A stretch of DNA of 64,000 nt from Saprospiraceae bacterium (GTDB lineage Bacteria; Bacteroidota; Bacteroidia; Chitinophagales; Saprospiraceae), in assembly GCA_044226205.1 (NCBI GenBank), contig JBGAHL010000016.1, positions 8,208 through 72,207 of the forward strand, in the 5' to 3' direction. This document shows positions 1,047-64,000 of the stretch, in pieces. Position numbers and translations under genes: made by a program. The number at the start of each line of letters is the position of its first letter. Within the stretch, counting starts at the first letter, position 1. The notes under the pieces were generated by a model that did not search any database, was not told where the DNA came from, and saw only the letters and a list, made by a program, of their open reading frames with translations.

Positions 1047-1072
1047 ATTGCTGATTTACAACTACCTAAGAA

Positions 1073-1111
1073 AGTCGGGGCAGCCTTCGTGGCCGCCCCG
1101 ACTATTTTTTT
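1073..1111 (+). terminator. rho-independent terminator after the lipoprotein gene
   Basis: A 9-bp stem agtcggggc/gccccgact (1073-1081 with 1095-1103) is followed by a T7 run at 1105-1111. Confidence 0.6.
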
Positions 1112-1115
1112 ACGG

Positions 1116-1155
1116 TAAAAACTTAGGCAGGGGCGCTGCCCCTGCCTAAGTTTTT
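1116..1155. terminator. bidirectional hairpin terminator containing one copy of the GGGGCGCTGCCCCTGC repeat
   Basis: A 12-bp stem cttaggcagggg/cccctgcctaag (1122-1133 with 1139-1150) is flanked by an A-run on the left and a T-run on the right. It lies between the convergent lipoprotein and nadE genes. The same 16-mer recurs at 61812-61960. Confidence 0.55.
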
Positions 1156-1160
1156 ACTTT

Positions 1161-2912: not shown

Positions 2913-2933
2913 GCGACGGGTAGTTTTATGCGG

Positions 2934-2941
2934 CAAATGTA
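2934..2941 (-). promoter_or_regulatory. Bacteroidota -7 box (TAcaTTTG) upstream of nadE
   Basis: The reverse complement of caaatgta is TACATTTG, matching the TAnnTTTG consensus. It lies about 22 nt upstream of the nadE ATG. Confidence 0.4.
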
Positions 2942-3115
2942 GTGCCTGCGGGCAGATGGGATCCAATGGATTTAGCGGCGCTGAAATTTATGGAAACGAA
3001 AAGATTCACTTTCAGCACGCTATTTTTCAACAAAATCCAAAGCCTGCTGTCTGACGTATCTTGTAAATCTTGACCAAGAAGCCCTCAAAACCAGTCCGCA
3101 AGCAACCGGAACGTT

Positions 3116-3123
3116 TACCTTTG
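3116..3123 (+). promoter_or_regulatory. Bacteroidota -7 box (TAccTTTG) upstream of ubiE
   Basis: TACCTTTG ends 10 nt before the ATG at 3134. Confidence 0.4.
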
Positions 3124-3133
3124 CGCCAGTTTT

Positions 3134-3868
3134 ATGAAAGAAAAATCTGTGGTCACTCCGTACAACGACGCCGAAGCCAAAAAAGCACAGGTGGAGCGCA
3201 TGTTCGACAACATCGCGCCGAAATACGACCTGCTCAACCGCGTGCTTTCACTCGGCATCGACATACAGTGGCGAAAAAAAGCCCTGAATTACCTGCGCGA
3301 CCTTGCGCCGCAAAGCCTGCTCGACGTGGCAACCGGCACGGCCGACGTGGCCATCATGGCCGCCCGCCGACTGGGGCCGAAACAAATCATCGGCATCGAT
3401 ATCGCCAACCAAATGCTCGATATCGGCCGCGACAAGATCGGGAAAGCGGGTTTGCAGGACACCATCAGCCTCGAAACCGGCGACAGCGAAAACCTGCGTT
3501 TTGCCGACAACAGCTTCGACGCGGTCACTGTGGCTTTCGGGGTGCGCAATTTTGAAAACCTGGAAAAAGGCCTCGCAGAAATGCTGCGCGTACTCCGCCC
3601 GGGCGGCCGTGTGGTCATTCTGGAATTCTCCAAACCGGGTATTTTTCCGATAAAACAGCTGTACAACAGCTACTTCAAATACGTTTTGCCCCTGATCGGG
3701 CGTTTAACCAGCCGTGACATGCGCGCTTACACCTATCTCTTCGAAAGTGTGCAGGCGTTTCCCGAAGGCAAGGACTTTCTCAACATTTTATCCAAAACCG
3801 GTTATCAAAATCCACAATGCGAACGATTGACGCTCGGAATATGCTCCATTTACACTGCAATAAAATAA
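3134..3868 (+). CDS. ubiE: demethylmenaquinone/ubiquinone C-methyltransferase (UbiE/MenG family)
   Basis: The N-terminal block VERMFDNIAPKYDLLNRVLSLGIDIQWRK and the SAM motif LLDVATGTADVA are present. The 244-aa length is typical of the family. Confidence 0.9.
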   Translation: MKEKSVVTPYNDAEAKKAQVERMFDNIAPKYDLLNRVLSLGIDIQWRKKALNYLRDLAPQSLLDVATGTADVAIMAARRLGPKQIIGIDIANQMLDIGRDKIGKAGLQDTISLETGDSENLRFADNSFDAVTVAFGVRNFENLEKGLAEMLRVLRPGGRVVILEFSKPGIFPIKQLYNSYFKYVLPLIGRLTSRDMRAYTYLFESVQAFPEGKDFLNILSKTGYQNPQCERLTLGICSIYTAIK

Positions 3869-4587
3869 TCGGGACGGCCTCCAGAGTGCTGGCGGTTTGC
3901 CTGTTGCTGAGCTTCGTGGCGGCGCCCGAGGCAAAAGCCCAGTTCTCTTCGGGCCAAAACCTGAACTACCGCGATTTTCAGAACAAGCCCTATTATTTCG
4001 GCATCACGCTGGGGTACAACCAGAGCGATTTCCGCATTTTTCACTCGAAAAACTTCATTGCCAGCGATTCTTTCAGCCGCGCGGAATCGGTCACTGGCCC
4101 CGGTTTTAACCTCGGTATCGTGTCGAACCTGAAAATCGGGGAGTACTTCGACGTGCGCTTTTTGCCGACGCTCTCCTTTGCCGAGCGCAACATTCGCTAC
4201 GCCCCGCCCGGCGAAAATTCCATCTTGCTCACCCGCCGCATTGAGTCGGTTTTTGTGGAAATGCCTTTTCATGTGCGCTACAAATCGGCGCCGTTCCACG
4301 ATTTCCGCCTTTTCGTCATCGGCGGCGTCAAGTACGTGTTCGACGTAGCGAGCGACTCCCGCACCCGGCAGGCGGCAGGTCTGGTCAAAATCGCGCCGAC
4401 CGACTTCCAGGTGGAATACGGGGCTGGCATCCAGTTCTTTTTCCCGTATTTTATTTTCTCCCCGGAGTTCAAAATCTCACAGGGCATCAACAATATCCTG
4501 ATCTACAACGACCGGCTCGAGCAAAGCACCATTCTGGAAAAAGTGATGTCGCGAACCTTTACCATTTCGCTGCACTTCGAAGGATAA
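3841..4587 (+). CDS. PorT-family outer-membrane beta-barrel protein (T9SS-associated family)
   Basis: A signal peptide ends in AAPEAKAQ. Alternating beta-strand patterns such as FGITLGYNQSDF, GFNLGIVSNL and VEMPFHVRYK are present, with a terminal aromatic-rich strand. Position directly after ubiE is a common Bacteroidota arrangement. The start is uncertain: ATG 3841 overlaps the ubiE stop, and GTG 3886 is an alternative. Confidence 0.6.
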   Translation: MLHLHCNKIIGTASRVLAVCLLLSFVAAPEAKAQFSSGQNLNYRDFQNKPYYFGITLGYNQSDFRIFHSKNFIASDSFSRAESVTGPGFNLGIVSNLKIGEYFDVRFLPTLSFAERNIRYAPPGENSILLTRRIESVFVEMPFHVRYKSAPFHDFRLFVIGGVKYVFDVASDSRTRQAAGLVKIAPTDFQVEYGAGIQFFFPYFIFSPEFKISQGINNILIYNDRLEQSTILEKVMSRTFTISLHFEG

Positions 4588-4615
4588 GCGCCGGATTTCC
4601 CGCAAAAAAAATTCC

Positions 4616-4662
4616 CAGATGTTACACAGAATCAAGGTCTTCTGTGTAACATCTGTTTTTTT
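4616..4662 (+). terminator. rho-independent terminator
   Basis: A perfect 16-bp stem cagatgttacacagaa/ttctgtgtaacatctg with an 8-nt loop is followed by T7. Confidence 0.75.
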
Positions 4663-4708
4663 ATATCAGGGGCAGGATGTCCTGAAAAGCCGCCCCGCCG
4701 GGAATTGC

Positions 4709-4716
4709 TATATTTG
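4709..4716 (+). promoter_or_regulatory. Bacteroidota -7 box (TAtaTTTG) upstream of dnaG
   Basis: TATATTTG ends 11 nt before the ATG at 4728. Confidence 0.4.
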
Positions 4717-4727
4717 CCAGACGACAA

Positions 4728-6698
4728 ATGATTACCGCCAAAACCGTCCGGGAAATCCTCGACGCAGTCCGTATCGAAGAAGTGATCGAGGAGTTTGTGA
4801 GCCTGCGCCGCCGCGGGATCAACCTGATTGGTTTGTGCCCTTTCCACCACGAAAAAACGCCGTCGTTCAACGTCAATCCTGCGCGCAACCTGTTCAAGTG
4901 TTTTGGCTGCGGCAAAGCCGGCGACGCCATCACGTTCCTGCGCGAACACGAGCAGTTCTCTTACCCGGAAGCCCTGCGCTGGCTGGCCAGAAAGTACAAT
5001 ATCGAGATCGAAGAGGCAGAACTCAGTCCCGAGCAGCGGGCCGCCGATCAGATGGCCGAGTCCTTGTACATCGTCAATGATTTTGGTCTGAAGCATTTTC
5101 AGGAGCAACTGTTCGACACCGACGAGGGCAAATCCGTGGCGCTTTCCTACTTCCGTCAGCGCGGCCTGCGCGAAGACACGATCCGCACTTTCGGGCTGGG
5201 CTACGCCCCCGACCAGCGCGACCTGCTCATGCAACGGGCGCGCACGACCGGCCACTCCGTGGAATTGCTCAAAAAAGTCGGGCTCTGCAGCAACGACGGT
5301 TCGCGGGATTTTTTTCGCGGACGAGTCATGTTCGCCATTCACAACCTCTCGGGAAAAGTGGCCGCTTTCGCGGGCCGCACGATGTCGGCCGACAAGTCGG
5401 TTCCGAAATACATCAACAGCCCGGAAACCGAGATTTATGTCAAAAACAAAACCCTTTACGGCGCATTTCAGGCTAAAAAAGCCATTCGCCAGCAGGATGA
5501 ATGCATCCTGGTCGAGGGTTATATGGACGTCATTTCGCTGTACCAGGCCGGCATCGAAAACGTGGTGGCCAGCAGCGGCACCTCGCTGACGGAAGGACAA
5601 CTCAACCTCATCCGCCGCAACACCAACAACCTCAAAATTCTGTACGACGGCGATCCGGCGGGCATCAAAGCAGCCCTTCGCGGCCTCGATCTGGCCCTCG
5701 AACAGGACCTCAATGTGCGCATCGTACTGTTGCCCGATGGCGAAGACCCTGACAGCTACGTGCAAAAGGTCGGCAGCGAGGCTTTTCTGGAATATGTGGC
5801 CCGCGAAGCGAAGGATTTTATCCTGTTCAAAACCCAGCTGTTGCTGTCGGAGATCAAAGGCGACCCGATCAAAAAAGCGGGTTTGGTGAAAGATATCGTT
5901 GCCAGTATTTCCCGTATTCCCGACCCGATCAAGCGCAGCGTTTACCAAAAAGAATGTGCCAGCCTGCTCGATGTAGCGGAGCCTGCGCTCGTGGAAGAAA
6001 CCAACAAACTGATCACGCAGGGCCTCAAAAAACAGGAAGAACGCAAGGCCCGCGCCCCCGAAGCAGCATCCGATTCGCCCGATGCGCAGCCCAACCCCGA
6101 GGTGCCGGTGGAAGATCCCGCGTTTGCACGGCCAAGGGAGCGTCCGATGGCACGCGGAGATGAGTTTCAGGAACGTTATATCATTCGACTTTTGGTGTTG
6201 TATGGCGATCAAATACTACCCGAAGGCGTATCCGTGGCCGAGTACATTTTGGCTGATATCGAGGATTCGCTAGGTAGTTTTGACAATCCGCTTTATGGGA
6301 AAATTGCGACGGAATGCCATGATTTACTGCTTCAAAATCAAAATGTGGATTCCAATTATTTCCTGAGTCATACGAATCGTGATGTGCAAAGTTTGGCGCT
6401 TGATTTTCTGAATGAGCCTGATGAATACTCACCCAATTGGGAAGAACGGTACAATTACCCCTTGCAAAACCAAAAGCCGCCCGAGTTCAATTTTGATCCT
6501 GATACGCGCCAGGCCTTGGATCGGTTCAAAATCCGGAAAATTGAAAAAATGGTAGACATCAATAAATCGCGCCTGAAATCGGCCCAGGAGCAAGGCGATG
6601 TAGAAAATGTGGAACGTTATGTAAAAATCCACATGAAACTGACCGATGCTCGTAACGACGTGATCCGCCGTGCAGGTACTGTGGTAATCCCCAAATAG
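4728..6698 (+). CDS. dnaG: DNA primase
   Basis: The zinc-ribbon CPFHHEKTPSFNVNPARNLFKCFGCGKAGD and the TOPRIM motifs LVEGYMDVISL and LYDGDPAG are present. Confidence 0.93.
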   Translation: MITAKTVREILDAVRIEEVIEEFVSLRRRGINLIGLCPFHHEKTPSFNVNPARNLFKCFGCGKAGDAITFLREHEQFSYPEALRWLARKYNIEIEEAELSPEQRAADQMAESLYIVNDFGLKHFQEQLFDTDEGKSVALSYFRQRGLREDTIRTFGLGYAPDQRDLLMQRARTTGHSVELLKKVGLCSNDGSRDFFRGRVMFAIHNLSGKVAAFAGRTMSADKSVPKYINSPETEIYVKNKTLYGAFQAKKAIRQQDECILVEGYMDVISLYQAGIENVVASSGTSLTEGQLNLIRRNTNNLKILYDGDPAGIKAALRGLDLALEQDLNVRIVLLPDGEDPDSYVQKVGSEAFLEYVAREAKDFILFKTQLLLSEIKGDPIKKAGLVKDIVASISRIPDPIKRSVYQKECASLLDVAEPALVEETNKLITQGLKKQEERKARAPEAASDSPDAQPNPEVPVEDPAFARPRERPMARGDEFQERYIIRLLVLYGDQILPEGVSVAEYILADIEDSLGSFDNPLYGKIATECHDLLLQNQNVDSNYFLSHTNRDVQSLALDFLNEPDEYSPNWEERYNYPLQNQKPPEFNFDPDTRQALDRFKIRKIEKMVDINKSRLKSAQEQGDVENVERYVKIHMKLTDARNDVIRRAGTVVIPK

Positions 6699-7165
6699 CT
6701 ACATACGTTTTGCCGCGATGCGGCGCCCTTCGATCCGCCGGCAACCATGTGCTACATACGTGATGCCGCGATGCGGCAGGGTTTGCTCCGTGTAAAATCA
6801 TGAGATTTGGATGCAAGGATTTTGGTTTTCGAGAATATTCAACTGATGCTTCAAAGTCTAGTTGTTTTCTATTGACCGAACCCTGCCGCATCACGCATGT
6901 AGCACATGGTTTTCCGGGGAATGAACCCTGCCGCATCGCGGCATCACGTATGTAGCACATGGTTTTCCGGGGATCGAGCCCTGCCGCATCGCGGCATAAC
7001 GTATGTAGCACATGGTTTGCCGGCGGATCGAACCCTGCCGCATCGCGGCATAACGTATGTAGCACATGGTTTTCCGGGGATCGAATCCTGTCGCATCGCG
7101 GCATCACGGTATGTAGCACATGGTTGTCGGCGGATCGAAGGGCACCGCATCGCGGCATAACATAT
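6699..7165. repeat. REP-like repeat array (about 53-54-bp units)
   Basis: Direct copies of gaaccctgccgcatcgcggcatcacgtatgtagcacatggttttccggggatc start at 6878, 6923, 6976, 7030, 7083 and 7137 (the last is partial). Two inverted copies lie at 6699-6790. Each unit has gccgc-N3-gcggc and catgt-N3-acatg hairpins and a GTAG tetranucleotide. The outermost units, 6699-6751 and 7112-7165, are inverted copies of each other. Confidence 0.8.
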
Positions 7166-7337
7166 AAATCAAAGCATCTCTGGGGTAATGTGTTTTTGCC
7201 TAAATATCTGATAGTCAATTCCTTAATGCTTGTTTTTTTGAAAAATATTTTCCCAGCAACCTGCGACTAACACCAACGGGCCTTTAAATTTCGACGCTTT
7301 TGATTTATTTTTCAAAACATAATGTGTCCGGAAAACA

Positions 7338-47698: not shown

Positions 47699-47932
47699 CT
47701 ACCGTACCATCAGGTCGTCGACTGGTCGGACGATCAGTTGATCGACCGGGATTTCCAGCGCGTTGGCAATGTCTTCGATGTGGGACAGCCTGATGTCGGT
47801 TTCTCCCGCCTCGATTTTGCTGTACGCGGGCTGGGAGATGCCCAGTTGATCGGCGATGGCGGTTTGTGAAAGTTTTTTTCTGGAGCGGATTGAACGGATT
47901 TTAAGCAACAGTTCCGAGGTGAAGGAAGCCAT
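47699..47932 (-). CDS. XRE-family helix-turn-helix transcriptional regulator
   Basis: The protein is 77 aa with the HTH LSQTAIADQLGISQPAYSKIEAGE. Confidence 0.75.
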   Translation of the reverse strand: MASFTSELLLKIRSIRSRKKLSQTAIADQLGISQPAYSKIEAGETDIRLSHIEDIANALEIPVDQLIVRPVDDLMVR

Positions 47933-48134
47933 TGGGTTCGGGTTATAAAGGTGAATGAATGTTCAACTCGGCAGGCTACAATAATACGGGGGGGAGCATT
48001 AATGATGCAAATATGCACTTGTGTTTTTTTGTAAAAGTGAAATTATAACCTGTGGTTGTTGGACTGGAACAGCAAGGAAGACATCTTTGTAAGTTAGTAC
48101 GTGAAAATGTAATCTGTAACCCTTTGCTATTTTT

Positions 48135-48761
48135 ATGAATAAGATTGTCGCTCCGTTCGTCGCAATTTTTTACCTGCTTTTGATTACTTCCGGTTGCGGA
48201 AAAAAATCAGAAGACAACACGCCGGAAATCACCTATCCGTTGTTGTTCGCCATTCAGGGCCTCGAATTTCAGCCCTCTCATTTTTATGCCCTCAATGCCG
48301 GGTCGTTTGTTGAAATACCGCCAGCGGGTTCTTTTGTTCCAGTGGATGCATTTCTGGAGCCGGAACTGGAAGATGCCGCCAGCTTCATCGAACTGGAAAA
48401 AATCGAACTGCTGGACGAGTCACAGGCCAAAATTTATTTCTTCGACAACACGGGCATTCCGGAGATAACGGCGGACTACACTTCCGACAATAATCGTATT
48501 CGTATTGTCCTGGAGCCAGGCGCCGATCCTGTGTTCTTTGACATCGATTACGAGGCCGGCACTGCCAGACTCGGTTTGGAAAGTACTTATTTCAGTTTCC
48601 ACGATTCTTCCGGCGACGTCGATTATTCTCCGCTGGATGTTGAGTTTAAAGTGCCTGGTTCTGCTGGCGACGTCATCTCGGCGCTCAAAACTCAGTACGA
48701 TTTGGCTGATGGCGACACGATCATGATTAATTGGTCCGCGGTGTTGTATAAGACGGAATGA
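48135..48761 (+). CDS. lipoprotein, unknown function (intermediate GC)
   Basis: The signal peptide with lipobox is MNKIVAPFVAIFYLLLITSGC. The mature part is acidic. No motif recognised. Confidence 0.55.
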   Translation: MNKIVAPFVAIFYLLLITSGCGKKSEDNTPEITYPLLFAIQGLEFQPSHFYALNAGSFVEIPPAGSFVPVDAFLEPELEDAASFIELEKIELLDESQAKIYFFDNTGIPEITADYTSDNNRIRIVLEPGADPVFFDIDYEAGTARLGLESTYFSFHDSSGDVDYSPLDVEFKVPGSAGDVISALKTQYDLADGDTIMINWSAVLYKTE

Positions 48762-49104
48762 GGGGTTGGGTAAGGTAAATGGTAGCAACAACTGATTTCT
48801 GAATATCGGAAGAGGGATATTTTCATTAGAGTTGTTGTATCCTAATGCGTTGATTTTCAATAGATAATGCAACTATTTTTCTTACAGATTGAAACCTTTG
48901 CATTTCAAATAAAAATCATTGTCAGTGACCTTGCCTTAAAAATCATAAAAAGTTGATTTTCATATTGCAACAAGGATAACTAAACAAGATATAACCCTGA
49001 TTCAAAGTTTTTTACTATAAATCTATCGCTGTTAAGACTCATCAATGACGAAAATTAATTTAACTTGCATATTTTAAACTATGATTTAATTGCTTAAAAA
49101 TATT

Positions 49105-50049
49105 ATGAAAGCGAATTCAAAATTACTGAGTGTTTGTAATTGGGCATTAATAGTAATCTTATTTTTTCTATTTTCATTACAAAGCTTTGGCCAAAAAGCA
49201 AAGGTCATAATTAATCAAGACCCAAACCGACCTGAGGGTTTTAGTTTTATTGATTCATTGGGCAAAGAGTCCGCTTACCTTACTACATCAGACCTCTGTA
49301 AGAGAAACCCTTATTCAAAAATAACTTTGATGCCAAGGAGCGGAGGTGTTCCTGGCAATTATCAAGCATTTGATACTGAGGGTTTGTCAGTACATCAAAT
49401 TAAGGCAGGATTAAACAATACTATAAAAGAATTTCCAATAGATTCTGTGCTTGAAAAAGCAAAAAAAATTACTGCGTCATATAATTGGTATTATGATTAT
49501 CAACATGAAAATTATCTGACAATCATATACACGCTGACAATTTATGATGAAGAATTAATTGAGATATGGGTGGAATCGGAAATAAATGTATATGAAAGCA
49601 TTGATAGGCCAATCTTGGTTTTTACAGACTATCATAATTTGCAACAAATATGTATTTCGCCTGATGGAGAGTATATGATCACGGGGCAAGTTTTGTCAAT
49701 GATTGGAGACGGGGCTTCTGATTTACCGATTGGAATGCTATTGTTTAACTTAAAAAATAAAACCTATATCGGGGCAATGCCAAATGTAATTGGGAATGTT
49801 GAACAGGCACAATACGAACAGGGTTTTTTTTTATTATATGCATATATAGATTATGATGCTTTTGTTATAAATGACAATATCCCTGTAAAGGTTGTTGTCG
49901 ATCCTGAAAATAGAAAAATTTATACAAAGAAATACAATTGGTTGGCAAGTGATCTGACAGAAGATAACCTTTTACATATAAAATCAATCTCTTTCCCTAA
50001 TGGGGAGGATATTATGACTTATAAATCAAGTCCTTTAATACGAAAATGA
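49105..50049 (+). CDS. exported hypothetical protein (AT-rich island)
   Basis: Begins MKANSKLLSVCNWALIVILFFLFSLQSFGQ (signal or anchor). The ORF is 314 aa with no recognised motif. A T9 run lies at 49824-49832. Confidence 0.5.
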   Translation: MKANSKLLSVCNWALIVILFFLFSLQSFGQKAKVIINQDPNRPEGFSFIDSLGKESAYLTTSDLCKRNPYSKITLMPRSGGVPGNYQAFDTEGLSVHQIKAGLNNTIKEFPIDSVLEKAKKITASYNWYYDYQHENYLTIIYTLTIYDEELIEIWVESEINVYESIDRPILVFTDYHNLQQICISPDGEYMITGQVLSMIGDGASDLPIGMLLFNLKNKTYIGAMPNVIGNVEQAQYEQGFFLLYAYIDYDAFVINDNIPVKVVVDPENRKIYTKKYNWLASDLTEDNLLHIKSISFPNGEDIMTYKSSPLIRK

Positions 50050-50176
50050 ATTTTTGTACTGCTATTTTTTGAGTATAATGTTATAGTTGAATACAAGAAG
50101 GAGGTGTAAATAGGCTTAATGTCCGGGGCCGCTTCTTGAAAAGGACGATATTTTTTTGGACTAATCAGCAAATTCC

Positions 50177-50443
50177 TTATCGAAGTATATTATTGTGGCG
50201 CTTGACATGGGGTTTGGCCAGATCCTGTGCTTGCCATTTGATGCCTGTTAGATCAATAATATTTTCGTGTACCTCCCAAGGATCGCTAACGAGAAACAAC
50301 GGTGATATTCTCTGGGGGCCACACTCCTTGCACTTGTACTTGGGGTTTATAGAACTATTGCTCTCGTTTTTGACGAGCTCTAATTGAGACAGTTTTTGTT
50401 CATCTACTATGTAATAGAACTTCTTACAAAGAAGTTCAACCAA
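50177..50443 (-). CDS. questionable small ORF (TTG start; single CxxC: KCKECG), possibly a gene remnant
   Basis: This is the only ORF of any length in the 483-bp gap upstream of the giant gene. There is no ATG start and no recognised family. Confidence 0.2.
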   Translation of the reverse strand: MVELLCKKFYYIVDEQKLSQLELVKNESNSSINPKYKCKECGPQRISPLFLVSDPWEVHENIIDLTGIKWQAQDLAKPHVKRHNNILR

Positions 50444-50532
50444 AAAATGGACGCTGTCGAATTTATAATTGTAAAATTATTTGTTAATACTTCATACTAA
50501 TGGTTTAATGTTTACGCCCAAAATTCGACGCT

Positions 50533-53500
50533 ATGAAAAAAATATTCCTGCTATTGCTTGCCTTTTCCTATTTTAAAGGCGTGTTTGGGCAAAATGGAAT
50601 GCTAATATCTTTGCAATATAAATTATGTAGCCAGTGCCCAAATGGTGATAACCAGTCAATTGACTACTCATATGATAATGACGCAAGCTCTTATATAACA
50701 GAAAATATAGAGAGTGATTATGATATGCGTGTTGCCGATGGTACCAGGTTTCACCAAGGGATTGATTACCTTCCTCGTAATGATTGCAGGGGAGATGCCA
50801 TCTTAAATGTAGAACAAGGTGTATGTACTGTAATGTACGTGGGGGGGGGGAACTCATCCCTTAAAAATATTGTGCTTCAAAATCAGGATGGTACACGTGC
50901 TTTTGTATATATGCATTGTTTTGTTAATGCCAATATTGGGCCTGACGGTTTGCGATCGGGAGACTTCCTAATTAAAAGGATTGATAATAGTACTGAACTT
51001 ACAATCATTAATATGAATAGTAGTCCTGTTGTTGCATATGCTAAAACTCCAAATAGAACTGTAACATACAAGCGTTATGTTAATTCAACAACTACATCTA
51101 CCGTTCAAACGACGAATCATGTAGACCCTGGTGCTATGATTGCACCAATTGGTGATTCAGGTGAGGTGCCAGGTGTACACCTTCATATTTCTCTAATTGA
51201 GAGCCCAACTCTAAATGATCCAGCCTTTCGTGGGGGGCGTGACAATAATCGATCTGTTGACCCCTGGACTGTACTAGAGCACCCTCAAACCAATTTTTTT
51301 CAACAAATACGAACTCGAAAGATTGGCAATTTTGATGCTTCAATATGTGAACATACGGGGCCTGGTACTGATAGTTGGGGTCAAATAGTACCTGATTATT
51401 CAGGCGATACTAGAAACACAATTGAAATTGAGGTTGCTCTGGATGGAGCCGCTCCAAGACCAAATGACGATTCCAGATATGCCAATAAGTGTATGGACCA
51501 AGAAGAGGTTGTTCTTGGAATTAAAAATCTCAACTTTAATTCCGATTTTTCAGTTGCAACGGGGTCGGATTTTGAATCCAAATTTATTATCAACCCAATT
51601 GGTGATAAAATTATTTACCCATTTACCATGCTACTGCCTAATGGGACTGCTTATGGCTCCCCGACAAGGAATGGAATGAGCCCATTTGCCTACCGTGATT
51701 ATATAGGGTTTCATCCTCATGACTATTATTTTGTCTCTGATTTTTATATGCGAATTAGCAAAAACGACAATCTGTTACCTGCCCCAGTTCCCCACATGCC
51801 CCCTCCTGTTTCTACTCATACCTTAGCGCAATTTCCATGGGATGCTAGATACCCGGATGGCGATTATCAGATGCGGCCAAGCATCTTAGAAGTCAATAGC
51901 TCATCATGGCAGCCAATGGCAAATCCTGTAGATTTCAAAATTGACAATTTTAAACCTTTTATTGTTAAGGTAGGATTATTTGTGGGTAATGTGACTTCTA
52001 GTAGCACACCCGCATATTATCGAGCTTGGAGTACTGATGGGGCACCTCCTGGCAGTTTACGTTTATCTGGCTTATCAGGCAAGCAGCCGTCTTCAACAAG
52101 TAATCAACCAATTACAGTTTATGTCGTCGCGAGTGAATCTATGTCTAAAGTTCGGGCATTTATCAACGGCCTAACAGGCTGGGTTGATGGAACTACATTG
52201 CCTTTTGATTCCAACGATCCTGATAGTTGGGGTCATCAAAAATGGGAATTTCAATTTGGGACCTATACTCTTGATCCAGATATCTGCTACAACATAGTTT
52301 TTGAGGGTGAAGATTTATCAGGTAACAAGTTATTGAATTTACCTCAGCCTCTTTATTGTAATACAGGGTCAAATTTAATCTTTACACCACCACATCGCAC
52401 AGGTAGTAATTCGTGGAGCAACAACTCCATAGGGCAAGGTTCTGATTGGGTACACAAGTTTCGACTAGACGATTGTGGGGGAATTTTTAATCTTAGTCCC
52501 TCTGACCCATGCATAACATCAGAAGATGTACAATATTCTCTAAAATTTTCCGAGCCCCAATCTCATACTGGTAGCATTGATATGGATATTTCGGCGAATA
52601 CTAATGGCGCCTCGTTTACCTGGAGCGACGAATCCGGAGCGGTCATAAGTAATTCGGAAGACATATCTAACTTGCCCCCTGGCGTTTACTGCATCGAAAT
52701 CCTGAAAGACTGCTGTTCGTTTAATGATTGTTTGGAAATCGGGACTTGCGCGCTTAACGTGACAGAATCGCATACCAACCCTTCTAATAATGAGCATAAT
52801 GGCGAAATCACTTTGCTCCCTGAGCAAGGAATTGAGCCTTATTCGTATCATTGGAACACGGGTGAGACCACTGATGCCTTGTTTGATTTGCCTGCCGGCA
52901 CATATACGTGTACAGTAACTGATCATGTAGCCTGTCAGGCAGTTGTCAGCATTACGCTAATTAATTGCTCACCAATTGAAGTAGAACCTCATTACACAAA
53001 TGTAGTTCAGCCTACTTCCTGCGATTCTGATGATGGTTCCTTTCGCGTCCTGTCTGTTTCTACACCAACCGGCGGCACTCCTCCATATTCCTATCATTGG
53101 GAAGATCAGGATGGGAATACTTTATCAGGTGGCCCAGTATACTCTGGTTTGGGGCCAGGGCAATATTGTATTGTTGCAACTGATGCGAATGGCTGCACTG
53201 GTACAAGTTGCTTAACGCTTCAAGCATTGAGTGATATCTATGTTTCGGAGACGATTTACCCAGCTTGTGAATTAGATTACAATGGGTCTATATCTGTTTT
53301 TGCTTCAACTTCAACGGGGGGATACTGCGATTTTTACTGGGACACTGATTTCCAAAATAATAATGATCAATTTTCAACAATAACCGGACTTGCAAGTGGT
53401 ACTTATTGCGTCACGGTTACGCCCGCTGATGAGCCCAATTGCATCACTACCAGCTGCTATGAGGTGCCATCAGTTTGGCCAGAACCCATGAACTTGTCCT

Positions 53501-56500
53501 ATAATGTTATCCATCCTTGCCCATCTCAGCATAATGGGTCAATTAATTTGACGATAACAGGAGGGTACCCGCCTTTGAAATTTAAATGGGAGGATATTAT
53601 TAATGATACGGATAATAGGACTATGTTGGGCGATGGGACATATACGGTTACTGTTACGGATTATTGCGGAAGTTCTATTTCTAAAACATTTATTTTGAAG
53701 TCACTTGAACAGCCGATGTTAGTTTCCCATCCTGGTTGCGAAGGCGAAGGTTCAATTGAATGTAATACTGTTCATGGTGGCAATTCGCCAGTTACCCTCA
53801 AATGGAGTACAGGTAGTACAAATTATGGGACAGCCGGGACCATAAATTACCTTCATTCAGGGAATTATTGTGTAACTGCAACTGAATCAGAAGGTTGCAC
53901 AAGCGTGAATTGCATAACTTTGAATAATATATGGTACACAATTTCAAAAGAAGAGCCATGTCCTGGATCTCATAATGGGTTAATCACTATTCATGTAAAT
54001 AACCCCAATGAGGGTGAGGTTAGCGCATCATTGGAAGGTGTTCAAGTTTTTTTCAATGCTCATGCTCCACAAAATTTCGATATCGAAGTTCCTTCTTTGG
54101 AAGGGGACAAAAATTACAATTTTGTCTTTTCGATAGACAATTGTATATATTCGGAGATAGTCCATCTTGCTAACTCACCGCTGGAAAAAGAATTTCTGGA
54201 ATACAATGGCGCGAACCATACATGTATATACCAAAACACCTGTAATGGAGAACCTATTCCTGGTAGTATAGTTGTTAATGATGCCGCATATAATTATTCT
54301 ATGGCAAGTGGAGGTTTCTTTGTAGGGTGTGAAATACCCGTTTCTTGTGACGGGGTACAACAGGATGTGTTGCATATCGATAAGATAACAATTCGTGCGG
54401 CTCAATATGAGCAAATACTTCTCCATGTCGCGCCACAGTATTTTAGTATAGACGTGGTTGAGTCACTACTTCAAGCATTTTATAACCAACATTTTTGCGA
54501 TTGCACATGGGTGAGATATTGCCCTGCAAATTTGGAAATAACATCTGTTATAGAAGGTCTTCCAGGGAGATGTGGCAATGCAACTCCTATTGAAGGCGAG
54601 TATGGTTGCTTTTCGTTGCATTGTGGTATTTTTGGTATAAATGATGAAAGTTTTTGTTTAGGGCAATATAGTGAAGGCTATCCAGTGAATATAATACCAT
54701 CCGTATTTGAAAATTATAATTATGAAACAACAGTTGAGGACTGCAACCCTGTAACGATTAATTTATATCAGTTAATCGTTTGGGCAAATGATTTAGATGA
54801 ATATTATCAGGATCAGGATTTTCAAAGTTCTCCATTGTACTATTATATAAATAATTACCAATCCGATCCTAGGGCTAAATGCGCAACCATTACATTTTGT
54901 TCGTCTAATTTACAGGTGCTATATTGCGATGTCGAACTTGTGAATTGTGAGGATTATGAGAATATATATCTTGATCCGGCAGATTGTAGCCATTGGGGGG
55001 ATTTATTTGGAGAAGATGATAGTCATTGTGAATATTTTTTATGTGCTGATCCAAATGAAAATAACATGTTAGCAGTTAATCATCTTGTTGCAGGAGATGT
55101 ACCATCTACTAGTTATATCCACGGCCATCTCCAAAAGGTTTGCGATGACTTTCCAGGGCACTTTTTTTCCTCGCCTGATGAAAGCGATGAAAAGCTATAT
55201 CTGGGCTATTCACCAAATGAGAGTTTAATAAACTTTGGAATAACTCGATTTCAAAATGAAATTTATCCAAAGGGGATACTTCGTGTAGGAGAAGTCGGGA
55301 TCTATTTGGACTACGCTCTTACTATGAAGTATGATCGAAAAGAAATAATTCCAAATATTTCTTATTTCGTTGACGATTGGGATAATAATCGCCTGGCTTA
55401 CGTTGAAAATGTACAAAATGGGAAATCCATATTAATGGGTTGCCAAAATAATATTTTAGATTGGAATTATGACCTTCACAGCGATAATTTCTTGTCTGTA
55501 AATTATTTTAATCAAAGAGACAGTTTTTATTTCGTGGGGGGAGAATTTCAAGGGAATCTGATGCATGGCGAGACAGTTATCGCTAGTGGAAATAACAAGT
55601 CTGGCTATCTTATGAAAATAGGTAAAGATGGCTCTACGTTATCTACTGATATATTCAGAATGCAAAACCCAAATCAGGCGTTAATTTTCGAATCTTCTGA
55701 CAATGGGATTCATGTATTAGGGCGAGGTGGGGATCAGCCTTTGTCGATAAATGGAGTGAATCAACTTGTGGCAAACAATAGCATTTTTGATTTGCTTATT
55801 ACAAATCAAGGTTTGGCAAGTGTGTATAGTAGCGTGCCATTTGACCCTACAAAGACAATTGTAAGGTCTGCCTATTCGAGTGATGGGTCATATAAAACCT
55901 TTCTCCTTCGTGATAATAATATTACGGGATCTGAGGCTAATAGCAATTTGACTATTTATACAGAGTCAACAAATGGAAATTATTGGACTGAAACAATAGA
56001 TGGTAATATAACAAACGATGACGTTAGCGTTGTGTGTTCTACTGATAGCTCTATAATTGTAGGGGTGTCTTTTCAAGGCACTTTGTCACTTCAAGATGTA
56101 GAAATTCAAAATTATGGAAGCACGGATATTGCGTTGTTGAAGTTTTCTACTAATGGTGAATTGCTGGGATATTTGAATTATGGAACGCCTGCAAGTGAAA
56201 ATATCTCCCAACTACTTGTTAATGATAGTATTGTGTATTTTGGCGGCGAATATCAATCTACGTTAGATGAACGCGCTATCGGCCGGCATAATTTCAAATC
56301 GCCTCCTAATGGTATGACAGTACCATATCTGTCTTACGTGGAGCTTTCTGATTTTCAATTAGTCAATAATTTTAAACCCAATTTGGAAAGGTCAGATGCC
56401 CCAATTAATTTGTCTCATTTGCAAATACGGCCTAATCCCTTTAATCAAAATTTCGAAATCCTTCTTGATTTAACGGAGGATTCAAATGTTCAAATTTCCA

Positions 56501-56667
56501 TATTTGATCCATTGGGCAGGGTTTTGAAAAATATATCAAGAAATGCTCCACGCGGGATATCTAGTATTTCTGTTAGTGATCTTTCTAGTTTGCCTTCTGG
56601 TACTTATTATCTCAAAGTTATTGTTGGTGGTAATCTGTGTAAAAATATATGTATAATTAAGAAATAG
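50533..56667 (+). CDS. 2044-aa T9SS cargo: M23/LytM-type metallopeptidase domain, unknown region, about 7 SprB repeats, a 20-Cys module, SBBP-like beta-propeller repeats and a T9SS type-A CTD
   Basis: The signal peptide is MKKIFLLLLAFSYFKGVFGQ. M23 motifs are HQGID (aa 74-78; His codon at 50752) and GVHLHIS (aa 214-220; His216 codon at 51178). SprB-type repeats include NGEITLLPEQGIEPYSYHWNTGETT..LPAGTYTCTVTD and DDGSFRV..GGTPPYSYHWEDQDGN..GPGQYCIVATDANGC (aa ~655-1212). The C-terminus is IRPNPFNQNFEILLDL...SGTYYLKVIVGGNLCKNICIIKK. Confidence 0.85.
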   Translation: MKKIFLLLLAFSYFKGVFGQNGMLISLQYKLCSQCPNGDNQSIDYSYDNDASSYITENIESDYDMRVADGTRFHQGIDYLPRNDCRGDAILNVEQGVCTVMYVGGGNSSLKNIVLQNQDGTRAFVYMHCFVNANIGPDGLRSGDFLIKRIDNSTELTIINMNSSPVVAYAKTPNRTVTYKRYVNSTTTSTVQTTNHVDPGAMIAPIGDSGEVPGVHLHISLIESPTLNDPAFRGGRDNNRSVDPWTVLEHPQTNFFQQIRTRKIGNFDASICEHTGPGTDSWGQIVPDYSGDTRNTIEIEVALDGAAPRPNDDSRYANKCMDQEEVVLGIKNLNFNSDFSVATGSDFESKFIINPIGDKIIYPFTMLLPNGTAYGSPTRNGMSPFAYRDYIGFHPHDYYFVSDFYMRISKNDNLLPAPVPHMPPPVSTHTLAQFPWDARYPDGDYQMRPSILEVNSSSWQPMANPVDFKIDNFKPFIVKVGLFVGNVTSSSTPAYYRAWSTDGAPPGSLRLSGLSGKQPSSTSNQPITVYVVASESMSKVRAFINGLTGWVDGTTLPFDSNDPDSWGHQKWEFQFGTYTLDPDICYNIVFEGEDLSGNKLLNLPQPLYCNTGSNLIFTPPHRTGSNSWSNNSIGQGSDWVHKFRLDDCGGIFNLSPSDPCITSEDVQYSLKFSEPQSHTGSIDMDISANTNGASFTWSDESGAVISNSEDISNLPPGVYCIEILKDCCSFNDCLEIGTCALNVTESHTNPSNNEHNGEITLLPEQGIEPYSYHWNTGETTDALFDLPAGTYTCTVTDHVACQAVVSITLINCSPIEVEPHYTNVVQPTSCDSDDGSFRVLSVSTPTGGTPPYSYHWEDQDGNTLSGGPVYSGLGPGQYCIVATDANGCTGTSCLTLQALSDIYVSETIYPACELDYNGSISVFASTSTGGYCDFYWDTDFQNNNDQFSTITGLASGTYCVTVTPADEPNCITTSCYEVPSVWPEPMNLSYNVIHPCPSQHNGSINLTITGGYPPLKFKWEDIINDTDNRTMLGDGTYTVTVTDYCGSSISKTFILKSLEQPMLVSHPGCEGEGSIECNTVHGGNSPVTLKWSTGSTNYGTAGTINYLHSGNYCVTATESEGCTSVNCITLNNIWYTISKEEPCPGSHNGLITIHVNNPNEGEVSASLEGVQVFFNAHAPQNFDIEVPSLEGDKNYNFVFSIDNCIYSEIVHLANSPLEKEFLEYNGANHTCIYQNTCNGEPIPGSIVVNDAAYNYSMASGGFFVGCEIPVSCDGVQQDVLHIDKITIRAAQYEQILLHVAPQYFSIDVVESLLQAFYNQHFCDCTWVRYCPANLEITSVIEGLPGRCGNATPIEGEYGCFSLHCGIFGINDESFCLGQYSEGYPVNIIPSVFENYNYETTVEDCNPVTINLYQLIVWANDLDEYYQDQDFQSSPLYYYINNYQSDPRAKCATITFCSSNLQVLYCDVELVNCEDYENIYLDPADCSHWGDLFGEDDSHCEYFLCADPNENNMLAVNHLVAGDVPSTSYIHGHLQKVCDDFPGHFFSSPDESDEKLYLGYSPNESLINFGITRFQNEIYPKGILRVGEVGIYLDYALTMKYDRKEIIPNISYFVDDWDNNRLAYVENVQNGKSILMGCQNNILDWNYDLHSDNFLSVNYFNQRDSFYFVGGEFQGNLMHGETVIASGNNKSGYLMKIGKDGSTLSTDIFRMQNPNQALIFESSDNGIHVLGRGGDQPLSINGVNQLVANNSIFDLLITNQGLASVYSSVPFDPTKTIVRSAYSSDGSYKTFLLRDNNITGSEANSNLTIYTESTNGNYWTETIDGNITNDDVSVVCSTDSSIIVGVSFQGTLSLQDVEIQNYGSTDIALLKFSTNGELLGYLNYGTPASENISQLLVNDSIVYFGGEYQSTLDERAIGRHNFKSPPNGMTVPYLSYVELSDFQLVNNFKPNLERSDAPINLSHLQIRPNPFNQNFEILLDLTEDSNVQISIFDPLGRVLKNISRNAPRGISSISVSDLSSLPSGTYYLKVIVGGNLCKNICIIKK
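50841..50850 (+). repeat. G10 homopolymer tract inside the M23-coding region
   Basis: The sequence is gtacgt-gggggggggg-aactc, read as V-G-G-G-N (aa 103-107). It sits in an otherwise AT-rich gene. Confidence 0.9.
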
Positions 56668-56694
56668 CAAGATATAGCAGATTGCTTATGAATA

Positions 56695-56745
56695 GGGCCC
56701 GAGAAACGGATGTCTATGTGATATTCGTTTCTTGGGCCCTTTTTT
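56695..56745 (+). terminator. rho-independent terminator after the giant gene
   Basis: A 14-bp stem gggcccgagaaacg/cgtttcttgggccc (one G-U pair) is followed by T6. Confidence 0.7.
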
Positions 56746-56772
56746 ATCTTGCTTAAATAAATATGCATCTCC

Positions 56773-56780
56773 TACATTTG
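56773..56780 (+). promoter_or_regulatory. Bacteroidota -7 box (TAcaTTTG)
   Basis: TACATTTG ends 5 nt before the ATG at 56786. Confidence 0.4.
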
Positions 56781-57405: not shown

Positions 57406-57480
57406 CGGAGCATAGCTCAGTCGGTTTAGAGCGCACGCTTCACACGCGTGAGGTCGTAGGTTCGAATCCTACTGTTCCGA
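57406..57480 (+). tRNA. tRNA-Val: tRNA-Val (anticodon CAC)
   Basis: A manual cloverleaf fits. The acceptor is cggagca/tgttccg (one G-U pair), the D stem gctc/gagc, and the anticodon stem cacgc/gcgtg. The loop ttCACac places U33 before the anticodon. The T arm is gtagg-ttcgaat-cctac and the discriminator is A. No CCA is encoded. Confidence 0.9.
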
Positions 57481-57488
57481 CAAATTTC

Positions 57489-57527
57489 AAGGCTAACATT
57501 CTGACCATCAGAACGTTAGCCTTTTTT
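57489..57527 (+). terminator. rho-independent terminator after tRNA-Val
   Basis: A stem aaggctaacattctga/tcagaacgttagcctt (one mismatch) is followed by T6. Confidence 0.75.
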
Positions 57528-61615: not shown

Positions 61616-61756
61616 GACAGTTACGCTTATTGTTGTGGTTATGGTTCTTGTCCACAAAAAAGCGCAAACCTGCCAGCCCATTTCAAGCGACTTTACGTTA
61701 AAACAGGCCAAAAAGAGGTTAAAGCGGGCAATTTTTAACCTGATTGTAAAAACCTG

Positions 61757-61980
61757 GATAGAGGGCGAAAGGTGGAGGGCAGAAGGTTTTTACGATTTTT
61801 TTAAAGGCCTAGCAGGGGCAGCGCCCCGAAAGATTTGTAGTAAATGGCGGAGAAAACAGGCCAGGAGGGGCAGCGCCCCGAAACATCTTTCGGGGCGCTG
61901 CCCCTCCTGAATGGATTTTGGTACTAAAAGACTACAAATATTACGGGGCGCTGCCCCTGCCAAAGTTTTTTACGATTTGT
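61757..61980. repeat. composite palindromic repeat cluster built on GCAGGGGCAGCGCCCC
   Basis: A perfect 21-bp-stem hairpin lies at 61863-61908 (aggaggggcagcgccccgaaa-catc-tttcggggcgctgcccctcct). It is bracketed by an outer inverted pair 61812-61841 / 61931-61960 and by direct tttttacgattt motifs at about 61788 and 61966. Confidence 0.75.
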
Positions 61981-61987
61981 CCAAATG

Positions 61988-64000
61988 TCAGCGCAACAAG
62001 GTCAGTTCGCCTTTGAACTGTTGCGTCCGGCCGTCGTAGTACACCACCTCCGCCGTCCAGAATAACACATCGGAGGGATAGTCGCGACCATTCACCTTGC
62101 CGTCCCACCCGGTGGAGGGGTTGTTCGGGTCGAGGTTGAACCCGCCGTACACCTCCGTACCCCAGCGCGACCAGACGTGCAAAGAGCGGATGCTGTACAC
62201 ACAGGGGTCGGTGAGGAGGTAAAAAGTGTCGTTGGTGCCGTCGCCGTCGGGGCTGAATGCCGTGGGCGCCCGAACCGCACACATGTCGCTGACAGTCAGT
62301 GTAATGGCATCGGTGGCGGTGCAGCCGTTGGCGTCGGTGGCCAGTACGTTGTAGGTGACGGTCTGGAGTGGCGCAGCGGTCGGGGTCGGGCAATCGTCGC
62401 AACTCAGGCCGCCGGGGGGCGTCCATTGGTACTGCAAGGAAGCACTGCCGGGCGACAAAACCGCGAGGGGGAGTTCCGCGCCGATTTTCAGGCTGGTGTC
62501 GGCCGGCAGTTGTACCTGAAGTGGCGGGAAAATGTTGATCATGGCCGTCAGTTCGAGATCGCAACCGTCGGCCGTCACGAAATCCAGTGTCAGGGTGGTA
62601 TCGGCGCCGGAGGGCAGGCTTTGCCCCAGGTATTCGAGCGGCGCGCCGATGCAGATCGTGGTGTCGAGCACGGCGTCGAGTATCTGCGGGCCGACGCGGA
62701 TGGTATCTGTGCTCAGGCAGCCATCGGCATTTTGCGCGGTGACCACGTAATTGACGACATTTTCCGGGTAAATTGCCACAAGGGGGCAGGTGTCGCAACT
62801 CAAAGACAGGTCGGGCGACCATTGCCAGGACTCAAAATTGTCGGGCAATTCGAAACTCGTACCGGCCAGTCGGCAAACCACCCGGTTGGGGCCCAGATCG
62901 AGTTGCGAGCCGTGATCTACCGTGATCTTGACCGTATCGCGCTGCGCATTGCCGCAGGCATCCCAAACGGTGACCCAGTAAACGCCGGGGTAAGAAGTGG
63001 TCAGGGTCTGATCGGCTGTGCCATCCTGCCAGCGATAGCGGGCGTAGCCCGCCCCGGCATCGAGTTTAAAGACGCCATTTTCGCATACTTTGATGTCGGG
63101 ACCCAGGTTGAGTGCGGGCGCTTCGTCGTCGCTTACCGTGATGTACAGGGTATCGGTTTTCAGGCCGCATTTGAACCATGCTTTTGCCACAAGCCGGTAC
63201 GTGCCCGTGTCCAGATATTGAACAAAATATTCCTCCACATTAAAAACGCCCCCTATGCCGCCGCTTTGCTCCCAGCGCACGCTGTCGGCGCCGGCGCAAA
63301 GGAGGGAGCCGAGGGTGTAAACGCTCTGGGCCGGCAGGCCGCAAAGGGAGTCGGCTCCCTGGATATGGATGGGCCGTTCGGCATTGAGCAGCCAGGGCGC
63401 GATGCAGGGCAATCCGTATCTCACCCGGCCTGTACCCAGGGTTTGGGCATTGGCCTGGTACTGGCAGGCGGCGCCGGCCTCGTTGGGGTAAAAAATTAAG
63501 TCGAGCGCATCGGCAGGCGCTCCCGCTCCCGTGGCGATGTACAATTTGCCGTTGGGCCCCATTTGTATGGCGCCAAAACGCGGCGTAGCGCTGCTGGCCA
63601 GCGTCACCCTCGATGCCTTGATGGCCTGGGCATCGTCTGAAATCAGGTCGAACTGATACAAACCGGTGGGGGTGGCCACGTAGAGGAAACGGTCGTTGGG
63701 AGAAAATTCGAGGGTGTAAGCTTCCGCGAGCTCAGCTTGCCGGATGGAAATGACGTCCGACAGGCCGCCCAGAATCGGGTCGAAATGAAGGAGGTCGAAG
63801 CCGCTGGAGTTGGGCAGGGCGTCGGCGAGCAGGGTGCCCGCATGGTTGAATTTCATTTGGGCAATGATATTGCTCCCTGAGGTGTTCTGATCCAGTTCGC
63901 CGATATCGATGGAAAAAGGCTGAACCCCGACACTGTTGTCGGGCAGGACCTGGGTGATCAGAAATTGTGCCGTGTTTTGCCTTTTACGCAACACCCATTT
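61988..64000 (-). CDS. large surface protein with a T9SS type-B (gliding-motility-associated, CHU_C) C-terminal domain; N-terminus lies beyond the window
   Basis: The C-terminus is APTAFSPDGDGTNDTFYL...GWDGKVNGRDYPSDVLFWTAEVVYYDGRTQQFKGELTLLR, typical of the type-B sorting domain. The ORF is open to the window end. Confidence 0.8.
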   Translation of the reverse strand, partial: KWVLRKRQNTAQFLITQVLPDNSVGVQPFSIDIGELDQNTSGSNIIAQMKFNHAGTLLADALPNSSGFDLLHFDPILGGLSDVISIRQAELAEAYTLEFSPNDRFLYVATPTGLYQFDLISDDAQAIKASRVTLASSATPRFGAIQMGPNGKLYIATGAGAPADALDLIFYPNEAGAACQYQANAQTLGTGRVRYGLPCIAPWLLNAERPIHIQGADSLCGLPAQSVYTLGSLLCAGADSVRWEQSGGIGGVFNVEEYFVQYLDTGTYRLVAKAWFKCGLKTDTLYITVSDDEAPALNLGPDIKVCENGVFKLDAGAGYARYRWQDGTADQTLTTSYPGVYWVTVWDACGNAQRDTVKITVDHGSQLDLGPNRVVCRLAGTSFELPDNFESWQWSPDLSLSCDTCPLVAIYPENVVNYVVTAQNADGCLSTDTIRVGPQILDAVLDTTICIGAPLEYLGQSLPSGADTTLTLDFVTADGCDLELTAMINIFPPLQVQLPADTSLKIGAELPLAVLSPGSASLQYQWTPPGGLSCDDCPTPTAAPLQTVTYNVLATDANGCTATDAITLTVSDMCAVRAPTAFSPDGDGTNDTFYLLTDPCVYSIRSLHVWSRWGTEVYGGFNLDPNNPSTGWDGKVNGRDYPSDVLFWTAEVVYYDGRTQQFKGELTLLR

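Follow-up and report, generated by a model that had tools for sequence, protein, structure and literature searches.

The 64,000-nucleotide stretch of DNA analysed here (the window; positions 8,208 to 72,207 of the forward strand of contig JBGAHL010000016.1, assembly GCA_044226205.1) comes from a Saprospiraceae bacterium and carries a giant gene on its plus strand. The gene, 50533..56667, starts with ATG and encodes a protein of 2044 amino acids (aa), exactly where the first-pass annotation had placed it. From the N- to the C-terminus, the product is composed of a signal peptide, a domain resembling M23 metallopeptidases, a region of Ig/FN3-like folds, seven SprB-type repeats, a Cys-rich module, a beta-propeller-like domain and a type-A C-terminal sorting domain (CTD) of a type IX secretion system (T9SS). 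The Sec signal peptide (50533..50589, aa 1-19, MKKIFLLLLAFSYFKGVFG/Q) was read off the translation and makes Gln the first residue of the mature protein; the hydrophobic N-terminal leaders line up in an alignment of the family to which the giant protein belongs. Judged from its sequence, the N-terminal head is a genuine M23 domain that is probably catalytically competent, and it heads a widespread family of giant proteins that routine annotation overlooks.

The M23 metallopeptidase domain (50695..51297, aa ~55-255) is assigned on profile, fold and conservation. Its motifs are S61-D-Y-D-M-R66, RFHQGIDY with H74 and D78, YMH with H128, and GVHLHIS with H216 and H218, the last three present just as quoted in the first-pass annotation; the repeat and propeller-like motifs quoted there are present too. 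HxxxD and HxH signatures are to be expected by chance in 2044 residues and the assignment therefore needed independent support. The Pfam profile Peptidase_M23 (PF01551) scored 18.6 bits with the whole giant protein, over profile positions 46-89 only, and 25.1 bits (E 2.1e-5) with aa 1-300, while the gathering cut-off, an operational threshold and not a biological property, lies at 28.7 bits. The score remains below it because an insertion splits the domain. A single-sequence phmmer search of the PDB with aa 1-300 gave no match. A family profile of aa 40-262 compared with all PDB sequences, on the other hand, returned M23 peptidases alone, at E-values from 1e-6 to 1e-4, the best being 5gt1 (1e-6), 9gy1 (2.5e-6), LytU, 6jmx, LytM, zoocin A and lysostaphin. 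These matches are split into two stretches, one on each side of the insertion.

Conservation and predicted structure agree with the profile. In an alignment of eight family members H74, G76, D78, Y126, H128, G207, S209, H216 and H218 are invariant. Across 109 relatives with a complete module, which are 22-60% identical to the window protein and form the conservation set used throughout, the active-site residues H74, D78, H128 and H216 are kept in all and H218 in 108; R66 is kept in 109 and G64 in 99, both belonging to the classical S-x-F/Y-G-x-R upstream motif. A first AlphaFold2 model built from eight sequences reached a predicted local distance difference test score (pLDDT) of 66.5, and its six top Foldseek matches were all M23/LytM domains. 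With 27 diverse N-terminal modules (aa 1-669) the pLDDT rose to 84, with a predicted TM-score (pTM) of 0.81. Foldseek then matched the M23 core, each time at probability 1.0 and with TM-scores normalised by the target, to active LytM (2b13, 0.71), EnpA (6smk, 0.68) and the catalytic domain of lysostaphin (4qpb, 0.66), and further to DipM (7qrl, 0.58) and zoocin A (5kvp, 0.56). The M23/LytM beta-fold is thus recovered at a pLDDT of 84 with TM-scores of 0.66-0.71 for the three closest structures, and the motifs on which the first reading relied are now backed by the family profile, the fold and their conservation.

The list of fold matches also includes EnvC along with DipM, and many LytM-type domains are non-catalytic. 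This lends some weight to the view that the giant protein serves chiefly in adhesion or as an attachment fibre, for instance an epiphytic one that attaches to other bacteria or particles, and that its M23-like head binds peptidoglycan or a peptide but hardly cleaves it, if at all. The SprB repeats, the Ig-like domains and the beta-propeller are each typical of adhesins, and the design is like that of the GhpA grappling hook discussed below. However, each of the five residues that act in catalysis or as ligands is present in 108-109 of the 109 relatives, at identities as low as 22%, which is hard to explain without catalysis, and we regard a purely adhesive role as very unlikely. Non-catalytic LytM domains are defined by lost metal ligands. 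Since all five are retained here family-wide, a degenerate domain of the EnvC/NlpD/DipM type is rejected, and with it the fallback of the first-pass annotation, a degenerate M23 module acting in binding only. Two further ideas about the N-terminal part were abandoned: an N-terminal CxxC as universal latency switch, since only ~50 of the 109 members have it, and a conserved 'HPHD' second metal site, of which D397 alone is invariant.

The insertion that disturbs the Pfam profile comes after the third catalytic His and before HxH (50923..51117, aa ~131-195). It had been seen between YMH and HxH in the first-pass annotation, and it turns out to be a property of the whole family: H128 and H216 are 88 residues apart in the window protein and 73-111 (median 86) in the 109 relatives. 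The corresponding His-His spacing in LytM and lysostaphin is ~31 residues. The ~55 inserted residues are predicted to form six strands with a pLDDT of 93-97, the highest confidence in the AlphaFold2 model. This family-specific beta insertion probably reshapes the substrate groove.

The ~400 aa that follow (51316..52509, aa 262-659) are conserved along with the M23 domain, D397, D471 and N472 being invariant in the 109 relatives. The region had been described as uncharacterised. It is indeed present, and no sequence match was found in Pfam or by a PDB profile search of aa 262-660, but its structure is now predicted with confidence: the AlphaFold2 model is all-beta with high pLDDT, and Foldseek returned partial matches to FN3 and Ig-like domains, as expected of an Ig/FN3-like beta-sandwich. 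Together with the M23 domain it makes up an N-terminal module of ~620 aa that defines the family.

Downstream of this module are seven SprB-type repeats (52510..54180, aa 660-1216, 27 Cys), established by repeat alignment and scanning with a hidden Markov model (HMM) and in line with the approximately seven counted at first. They are Cys-framed units of ~73-88 aa of which the last is degenerate. Pfam SprB (PF13573) independently finds four of these stretches (E 1.2e-15; 2.8e-12 in the whole-protein scan), and we presume that the repeats form a stalk. The Cys-rich module (54181..55212, aa 1217-1560) contains the 20 Cys reported by the first-pass annotation, 14 of them invariant in five homologues; it matches nothing in Pfam and nothing in the PDB by profile search. 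The next domain (55213..56427, aa 1561-1965) had been taken for an SBBP-like beta-propeller. A four-sequence profile of aa 1561-1965 matched the CylK beta-propeller 7fh8 (E 3.5e-12, 4-5 repeated stretches, mainly on the C-terminal blades), which supports a propeller with SBBP/CylK-type blades, but the giant protein as a single sequence has no match to Pfam SBBP (PF06739). The likeness to CylK extends to the C-terminal propeller as a scaffold only, and nothing points to CylK-like alkylation chemistry.

The C-terminal end, 56428..56667 (aa 1966-2044 and the stop codon), is a type-A sorting domain by two profiles that both exceed their cut-offs, TIGR04183 with 48.2 bits (cut-off 23) and PF18962 with 42.2 bits (cut-off 27; Por_Secre_tail, 1e-10), as the first-pass annotation had it. 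With the signal peptide, export of the giant protein is well supported as far as sequence can tell. The M23 domain, probably in an active form, is the N-terminal domain of this T9SS type-A cargo protein, and we consider it very probable that the giant protein is an active, exported M23 enzyme.

Such an enzyme might be a nutrient-scavenging or matrix-degrading protease, the active M23 head cleaving extracellular or surface proteins (Gly-rich, elastin-like, or of a sheath or S-layer of neighbours) as LasA-type M23 enzymes can, while the remainder of the protein would just keep the head at the cell or close to it, as in many T9SS-secreted hydrolases. The conserved active site and the CTD are as this explanation would have them, and the family-specific insertion is compatible with a non-canonical substrate. 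Peptidases and glycoside hydrolases also make up most of the known T9SS cargo (PMC11205867), which favours it further, and a peptidase of another family with a sorting domain is encoded in the same host region, a 2198-aa M43 protein with a CHU_C domain. On the other hand, the nearest structural matches of the head are peptidoglycan-directed enzymes. In view of this and of the genetic context considered below, a scavenging role for the head, and with it the mere holding function of the rest of the protein, appears unlikely to us.

The M43 gene just mentioned runs on the minus strand into the end of the window (61988-64000; compare 639-7235 of the sibling contig L011; L001-L016 are our labels for related loci or contigs compared with the window). 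Its product is a giant T9SS-type cargo protein with Peptidase_M43, PKD and type-B CHU_C domains. Two more Por_Secre_tail proteins are encoded to the left of a TonB receptor gene, at ~40-43.8 kb of the window; this TonB-dependent receptor clusters at 90% identity or more with NCBI proteins assigned to a Saprospiraceae bacterium. Further genes for cargo with a CTD of the Por_Secre_tail or CHU_C kind thus surround the locus in this host, which is indirect evidence for a T9SS there.

We determined the size of the family by an exhaustive HMM search with the N-terminal module against 1.84 billion representatives of 50%-identity clusters. E<=1e-3 was reached by 1581 matches and E<=1e-30 by 270, and nearly all of the best 150 extend over the full ~620 positions of the module, the proteins being 1200-3000 aa long. 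The module, recognised by its sequence, defines at least 270 such clusters of giant proteins, most of them with a T9SS CTD. An earlier impression of an extremely rare protein, which had come from seven N-terminal-module matches in a word-index search, was overturned by this result; the same kind of search with aa 1217-1956 gave no match. A scan for related loci starting from four closer sequences recovered two species-representative genomes and three metagenome loci only, because it depends on exact peptide patterns. Among 24 full-length relatives, Por_Secre_tail was detected in 20, SprB repeats in 18 and PKD in six, while Peptidase_M23 reached E<=1e-3 in just two. Pfam misses the M23 domain in the other 22, such that the catalytic head goes unnoticed when these proteins are annotated routinely. 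Named sources are metagenome-assembled genomes of 'Bacteroidota bacterium' and 'Saprospirales bacterium'. The whole architecture, including Cys-rich module and propeller, is common to L003 (33% identical to the window protein from end to end), L001 and L005; the Cys-rich module is also present in L002. The L004 and L002 giant proteins have different C-terminal parts. The giant genes at L001:2775-7274 and L002:1163-6076 are each broken by an in-frame TAG, and that of L001 additionally by a frameshift near 2790; the TAG stops could reflect assembly error, decay or read-through.

The giant gene is located in a low-GC segment of 7,949 bp (48828..56776), delimited by blastn against two sibling contigs, L011 and L012, which are 99.66% identical to the window up to 48827 and resume at 98.3% from 56777. 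In the window the segment contains a partner gene and the giant gene; it also includes the intrinsic-terminator-like hairpin (56695..56739, plus strand, 20-bp stem with 10 GC pairs and a T-run) that starts 28 nt past the stop codon of the giant gene. In the siblings its place is taken by 1,485 bp with one unrelated gene (L011:12329-13579, minus strand) for a secreted protein of 416 aa, 38% GC, with sub-threshold beta-propeller matches only. The possibility that this protein is a divergent partner homologue was discarded at an hhalign probability of 12.5%. GC content is 38% for the segment compared with 55.6% for the host, and at third codon positions (GC3) 27-31% compared with 65-70%; by gene, the values are 32% (GC3 27%) for the partner and 39% (GC3 31%) for the giant gene. 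Among public assemblies the flanking genes are found on 16-24 contigs and the exact giant protein sequence on one. The pair of partner and giant gene varies between strains, and we propose that it is horizontally mobile.

The right junction of the segment is 630 bp away from a tRNA-Val(CAC) gene (57406-57481, plus strand, followed by a hairpin with a 16-nt perfect stem at 57489-57523), with a DUF6155 gene of host GC content in between. An integrative element at tRNA-Val was considered and rejected, since this junction is 630 bp distant and neither an integrase nor convincing att-like flanking direct repeats were found at the island. A relative, P0013, on a 612-kb contig, shows at L008:1018-21808 a phage-type integrase and two partner copies that are 63% identical, then an M23 module truncated to 392 aa, followed by IS21, IS66 and Mu-like transposases. 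Elsewhere in the window, at 61746-61991, the siblings lose similarity for ~250 bp with 95.9% identity beyond, which suggests a second, smaller variable spot in the intergenic region between the HtrA gene and that of the M43 protein.

A segment of this kind could also be a decaying or inert passenger, acquired horizontally and with no present role in the host. The strongly foreign composition and the occurrence of the exact giant sequence on a single contig would fit, as would an unusual 484-bp spacer between partner and giant gene, compared with at most 90 bp in relatives, and the homologues with in-frame TAG stops or a frameshift on two metagenome contigs. However, the 6.1-kb open reading frame (ORF) is uninterrupted and has its signal peptide, active site and CTD as well as a terminator, and so long a frame in AT-rich DNA would not remain open by chance. 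We therefore hold an inert passenger to be highly improbable. The spacer itself (50050-50532; 2-90 bp in relatives) has a somewhat higher GC content and contains a reverse-strand ORF of 88 aa (50177-50443), which matches nothing in Pfam and in which a 'CKECG' motif occurs; the spacer may be the remnant of an inserted element.

The partner gene (49090..50049, plus strand) encodes a protein of 319 aa with a signal peptide and is identified by homologues upstream of other giant genes. Members of this family have ~320-375 aa, mostly with a lipoprotein-type signal, and their genes lie directly upstream of the giant gene. A partner-sized gene is found in this position in the window and at eight further loci, namely L001, L002, L003, L004, L008, L014, L015 and L016. 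The window partner shares 33% identity with L001:99-1151 and 25% with the upstream ORF of L003, and a partner HMM finds loci outside its training set, L015 (7e-35 and 1e-23) and L016 (4e-22). By pairwise comparison and HMM, homology can be demonstrated for eight of the nine loci. The proteins contain a single WD40/PD40-like blade motif, for which the E-value is inflated by repeat-protein targets.

A second exported protein accompanies the pair. The gene at 48135..48761 (plus strand) encodes a 208-aa lipoprotein (signal ...LLITSGC/GKK) and is part of the conserved flank, outside the variable segment. It is homologous to L002_dn209 (E 3e-12) and L004_213 (3e-6), and the HMM of its family identifies L016_233 (3e-29), such that a family of ~205-aa lipoproteins recurs beside the giant/partner pair in five loci, the window, L002, L004, L008 and L016. 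Neither this nor the partner family has a Pfam or NCBIfam match, and a profile of the 208-aa lipoprotein found nothing in the PDB. Just to its left, at 47699-47932 on the minus strand, is a 77-aa XRE/RstR-like gene for a helix-turn-helix repressor; small HTH_3-type genes also adjoin the cassettes in L014 and L016, and a regulatory link is conceivable. A weak inverted repeat of 22 nt, 73% complementary (48111-48132 / 56662-56683), near the edges of the three-gene module is probably due to chance.

The arrangement is of the effector-immunity type, with a hydrolase gene tightly linked to a conserved gene for a small exported protein in a strain-variable locus. T9SS cargo acquires its fold while still in the periplasm, ahead of its passage across the outer membrane. 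It is therefore reasonable to think of the partners as dedicated factors of that compartment that inhibit the enzyme or confer immunity, or else as helpers in export; for the 319-aa partner we propose such a function, or one in anchoring. Partner genes, foreign composition and strain variability, none of which the first-pass annotation had noted, give circumstantial support to a role in competition, as a weapon. A linked lipoprotein partner and a strain-variable, exchanged placement are less to be expected of a scavenging protease, which they count against only in degree.

Taken together, the data are best accommodated by a model in which the giant protein acts on the cell walls of other bacteria. 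After Sec export the T9SS would take it across the outer membrane, with the type-A CTD as the signal; by analogy with characterised type-A cargo, this CTD should be cleaved off and the newly formed C-terminus attached to the cell surface. In T9SS type-A cargo it is the N-terminus that lies away from the anchor. Propeller and Cys-rich module would hence be close to the cell, the stalk would consist of the seven SprB-type repeats, and the Ig-like domains and the M23 domain would be displayed at the distal tip. From there, the zinc-dependent M23 head might cut the peptide cross-links in the exposed peptidoglycan of neighbouring cells, or some other Gly/Ala-rich peptide substrate, and cleavage could lyse or weaken these cells for competition or feeding. 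During periplasmic transit the ~340-aa partner and the ~205-aa lipoprotein might shield the wall of the producer, or they might assist export or anchoring. Surface tethering, the peptidoglycan substrate, action on other cells and the roles of the partners are what we infer for the giant protein, and the same applies to contact dependence and predation. We judge the chances of an antibacterial role directed at the cell wall to be about even. A more specific version would see lipoprotein, partner and giant protein as a T9SS-displayed lytic spear that lyses neighbours on contact, with the periplasmic lipoprotein or lipoproteins protecting the producer and the cassettes being swapped like effector-immunity pairs of type VI secretion systems (T6SS) or of contact-dependent inhibition (CDI); this extension is tentative and we would not rate it as probable.

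Several observations weigh against a wall-directed role on other cells or restrict it. The M23 domain scores below the Pfam gathering cut-off, and its ~55-aa insertion could alter or abolish specificity for peptidoglycan. No T9SS core genes are found within the 64-kb window, and the type-A CTD cargo of many Bacteroidota is released and not anchored. An M23 enzyme acting from outside cannot cross an outer membrane and reaches exposed peptidoglycan only. Plausible targets are therefore Gram-positive or pre-damaged cells, and Gram-negative prey would need another factor, which limits any reading as predation on Gram-negatives. Among known folds of immunity proteins and inhibitors there is no match for the partner proteins, and the upstream gene of L014 is not recognised by the partner HMM. 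Finally, the 208-aa lipoprotein gene is 99.7% identical in sibling strains without the giant gene; because it is kept there, it is not strictly dedicated to the giant gene.

Among known systems, the bacteriolytic M23 endopeptidases such as lysostaphin, LytM, EnpA, zoocin A and the LasA/beta-lytic protease (MEROPS M23, PF01551) are close to the giant protein; they are exported and act on the walls of other cells, as would the giant protein. They share with its head the fold (TM 0.56-0.71), all five residues of the active site (HxxxD, a central His and HxH) and the S-x-F/Y-G-x-R motif. The head differs by its beta insertion and sub-cut-off Pfam score, and also in context: while the bacteriolytic enzymes are small and carry an SH3b-type targeting domain, here the M23 domain is the N-terminus of a 2044-aa T9SS cargo protein and is followed by family-specific Ig-like domains.

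In overall design the closest characterised analogue is GhpA, the grappling hook of Aureispira, likewise of the Saprospiraceae, a giant T9SS substrate of ixotrophic predation (bioRxiv 10.1101/2024.01.29.577165; PMC12428579). The Saprospiraceae are known to include predators that depend on contact and capture their prey with a giant T9SS substrate; killing by Aureispira is ascribed to a T6SS (same references). GhpA and the window protein are both Sec/T9SS-exported giants with an N-terminal head, a repeat stalk with Ig-like/SprB-like domains, a C-terminal sorting domain and adjacent accessory genes. However, the head of GhpA is a flagella-binding hook and no enzyme. GhpA has 5,898 aa, is heptameric and is anchored by the downstream-encoded PorP/PorE-like GhpB/C, in contrast to the window, where the neighbours are two unannotated lipoprotein-type proteins without PorP or OmpA matches. 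The gliding adhesin SprB of Flavobacterium johnsoniae has in common with the giant protein the PF13573 repeats and the nature of a large T9SS-dependent surface protein, but the latter has a type-A instead of a type-B CTD, 2044 aa compared with ~6,500 aa, and an enzymatic head. A Pfam scan of the neighbouring genes detected no sprC/sprD/sprF-like or PorP-type genes, and the type-A CTD together with the missing sprF-like neighbour rules out orthology with SprB.

The hydrolase effector and immunity pairs of the T6SS (Tae-Tai / Tse-Tsi) offer a parallel on the genetic side, in that a wall hydrolase is linked to small genes for signal-peptide or lipoprotein products within a locus of foreign composition and strain-variable content. 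The giant protein would differ from such effectors in its use of the T9SS and in surface display, meeting the wall of its producer only in periplasmic transit, and immunity or inhibition by the window partners is purely an inference.

T9SS cargo proteins are known as adhesins, proteases and glycanases, and antibacterial killing by Bacteroidota is normally ascribed to the T6SS or to diffusible factors. We found no report in the searchable literature of an M23 peptidase as T9SS substrate or fused to SprB repeats, and M23 goes unmentioned in a review of T9SS cargo from 2024. The suggestion in the first-pass annotation that the architecture is undescribed holds in this sense, but with at least 270 clusters it is not a one-off fusion. 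The head is a divergent member of M23 and the components of the protein are of known kinds. What is new is an M23 subfamily with a conserved insertion that heads a widespread, unannotated family of giant T9SS cargo proteins with conserved lipoprotein partners in an exchanged slot.

Should the giant proteins indeed be surface-mounted wall hydrolases, they could explain part of the contact-dependent lysis in Saprospiraceae and other gliding Bacteroidota and would provide a directly testable gene for this activity, while the M23 subfamily with its conserved insertion would be of use for enzybiotic work. If they proved to function as contact-dependent lytic spears, the T9SS itself would be an antibacterial delivery platform, widespread in environmental Bacteroidota given the number of clusters. 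The partner genes and the strain-variable slot, for their part, make cassette exchange accessible to study in the uncultured, abundant Saprospiraceae.

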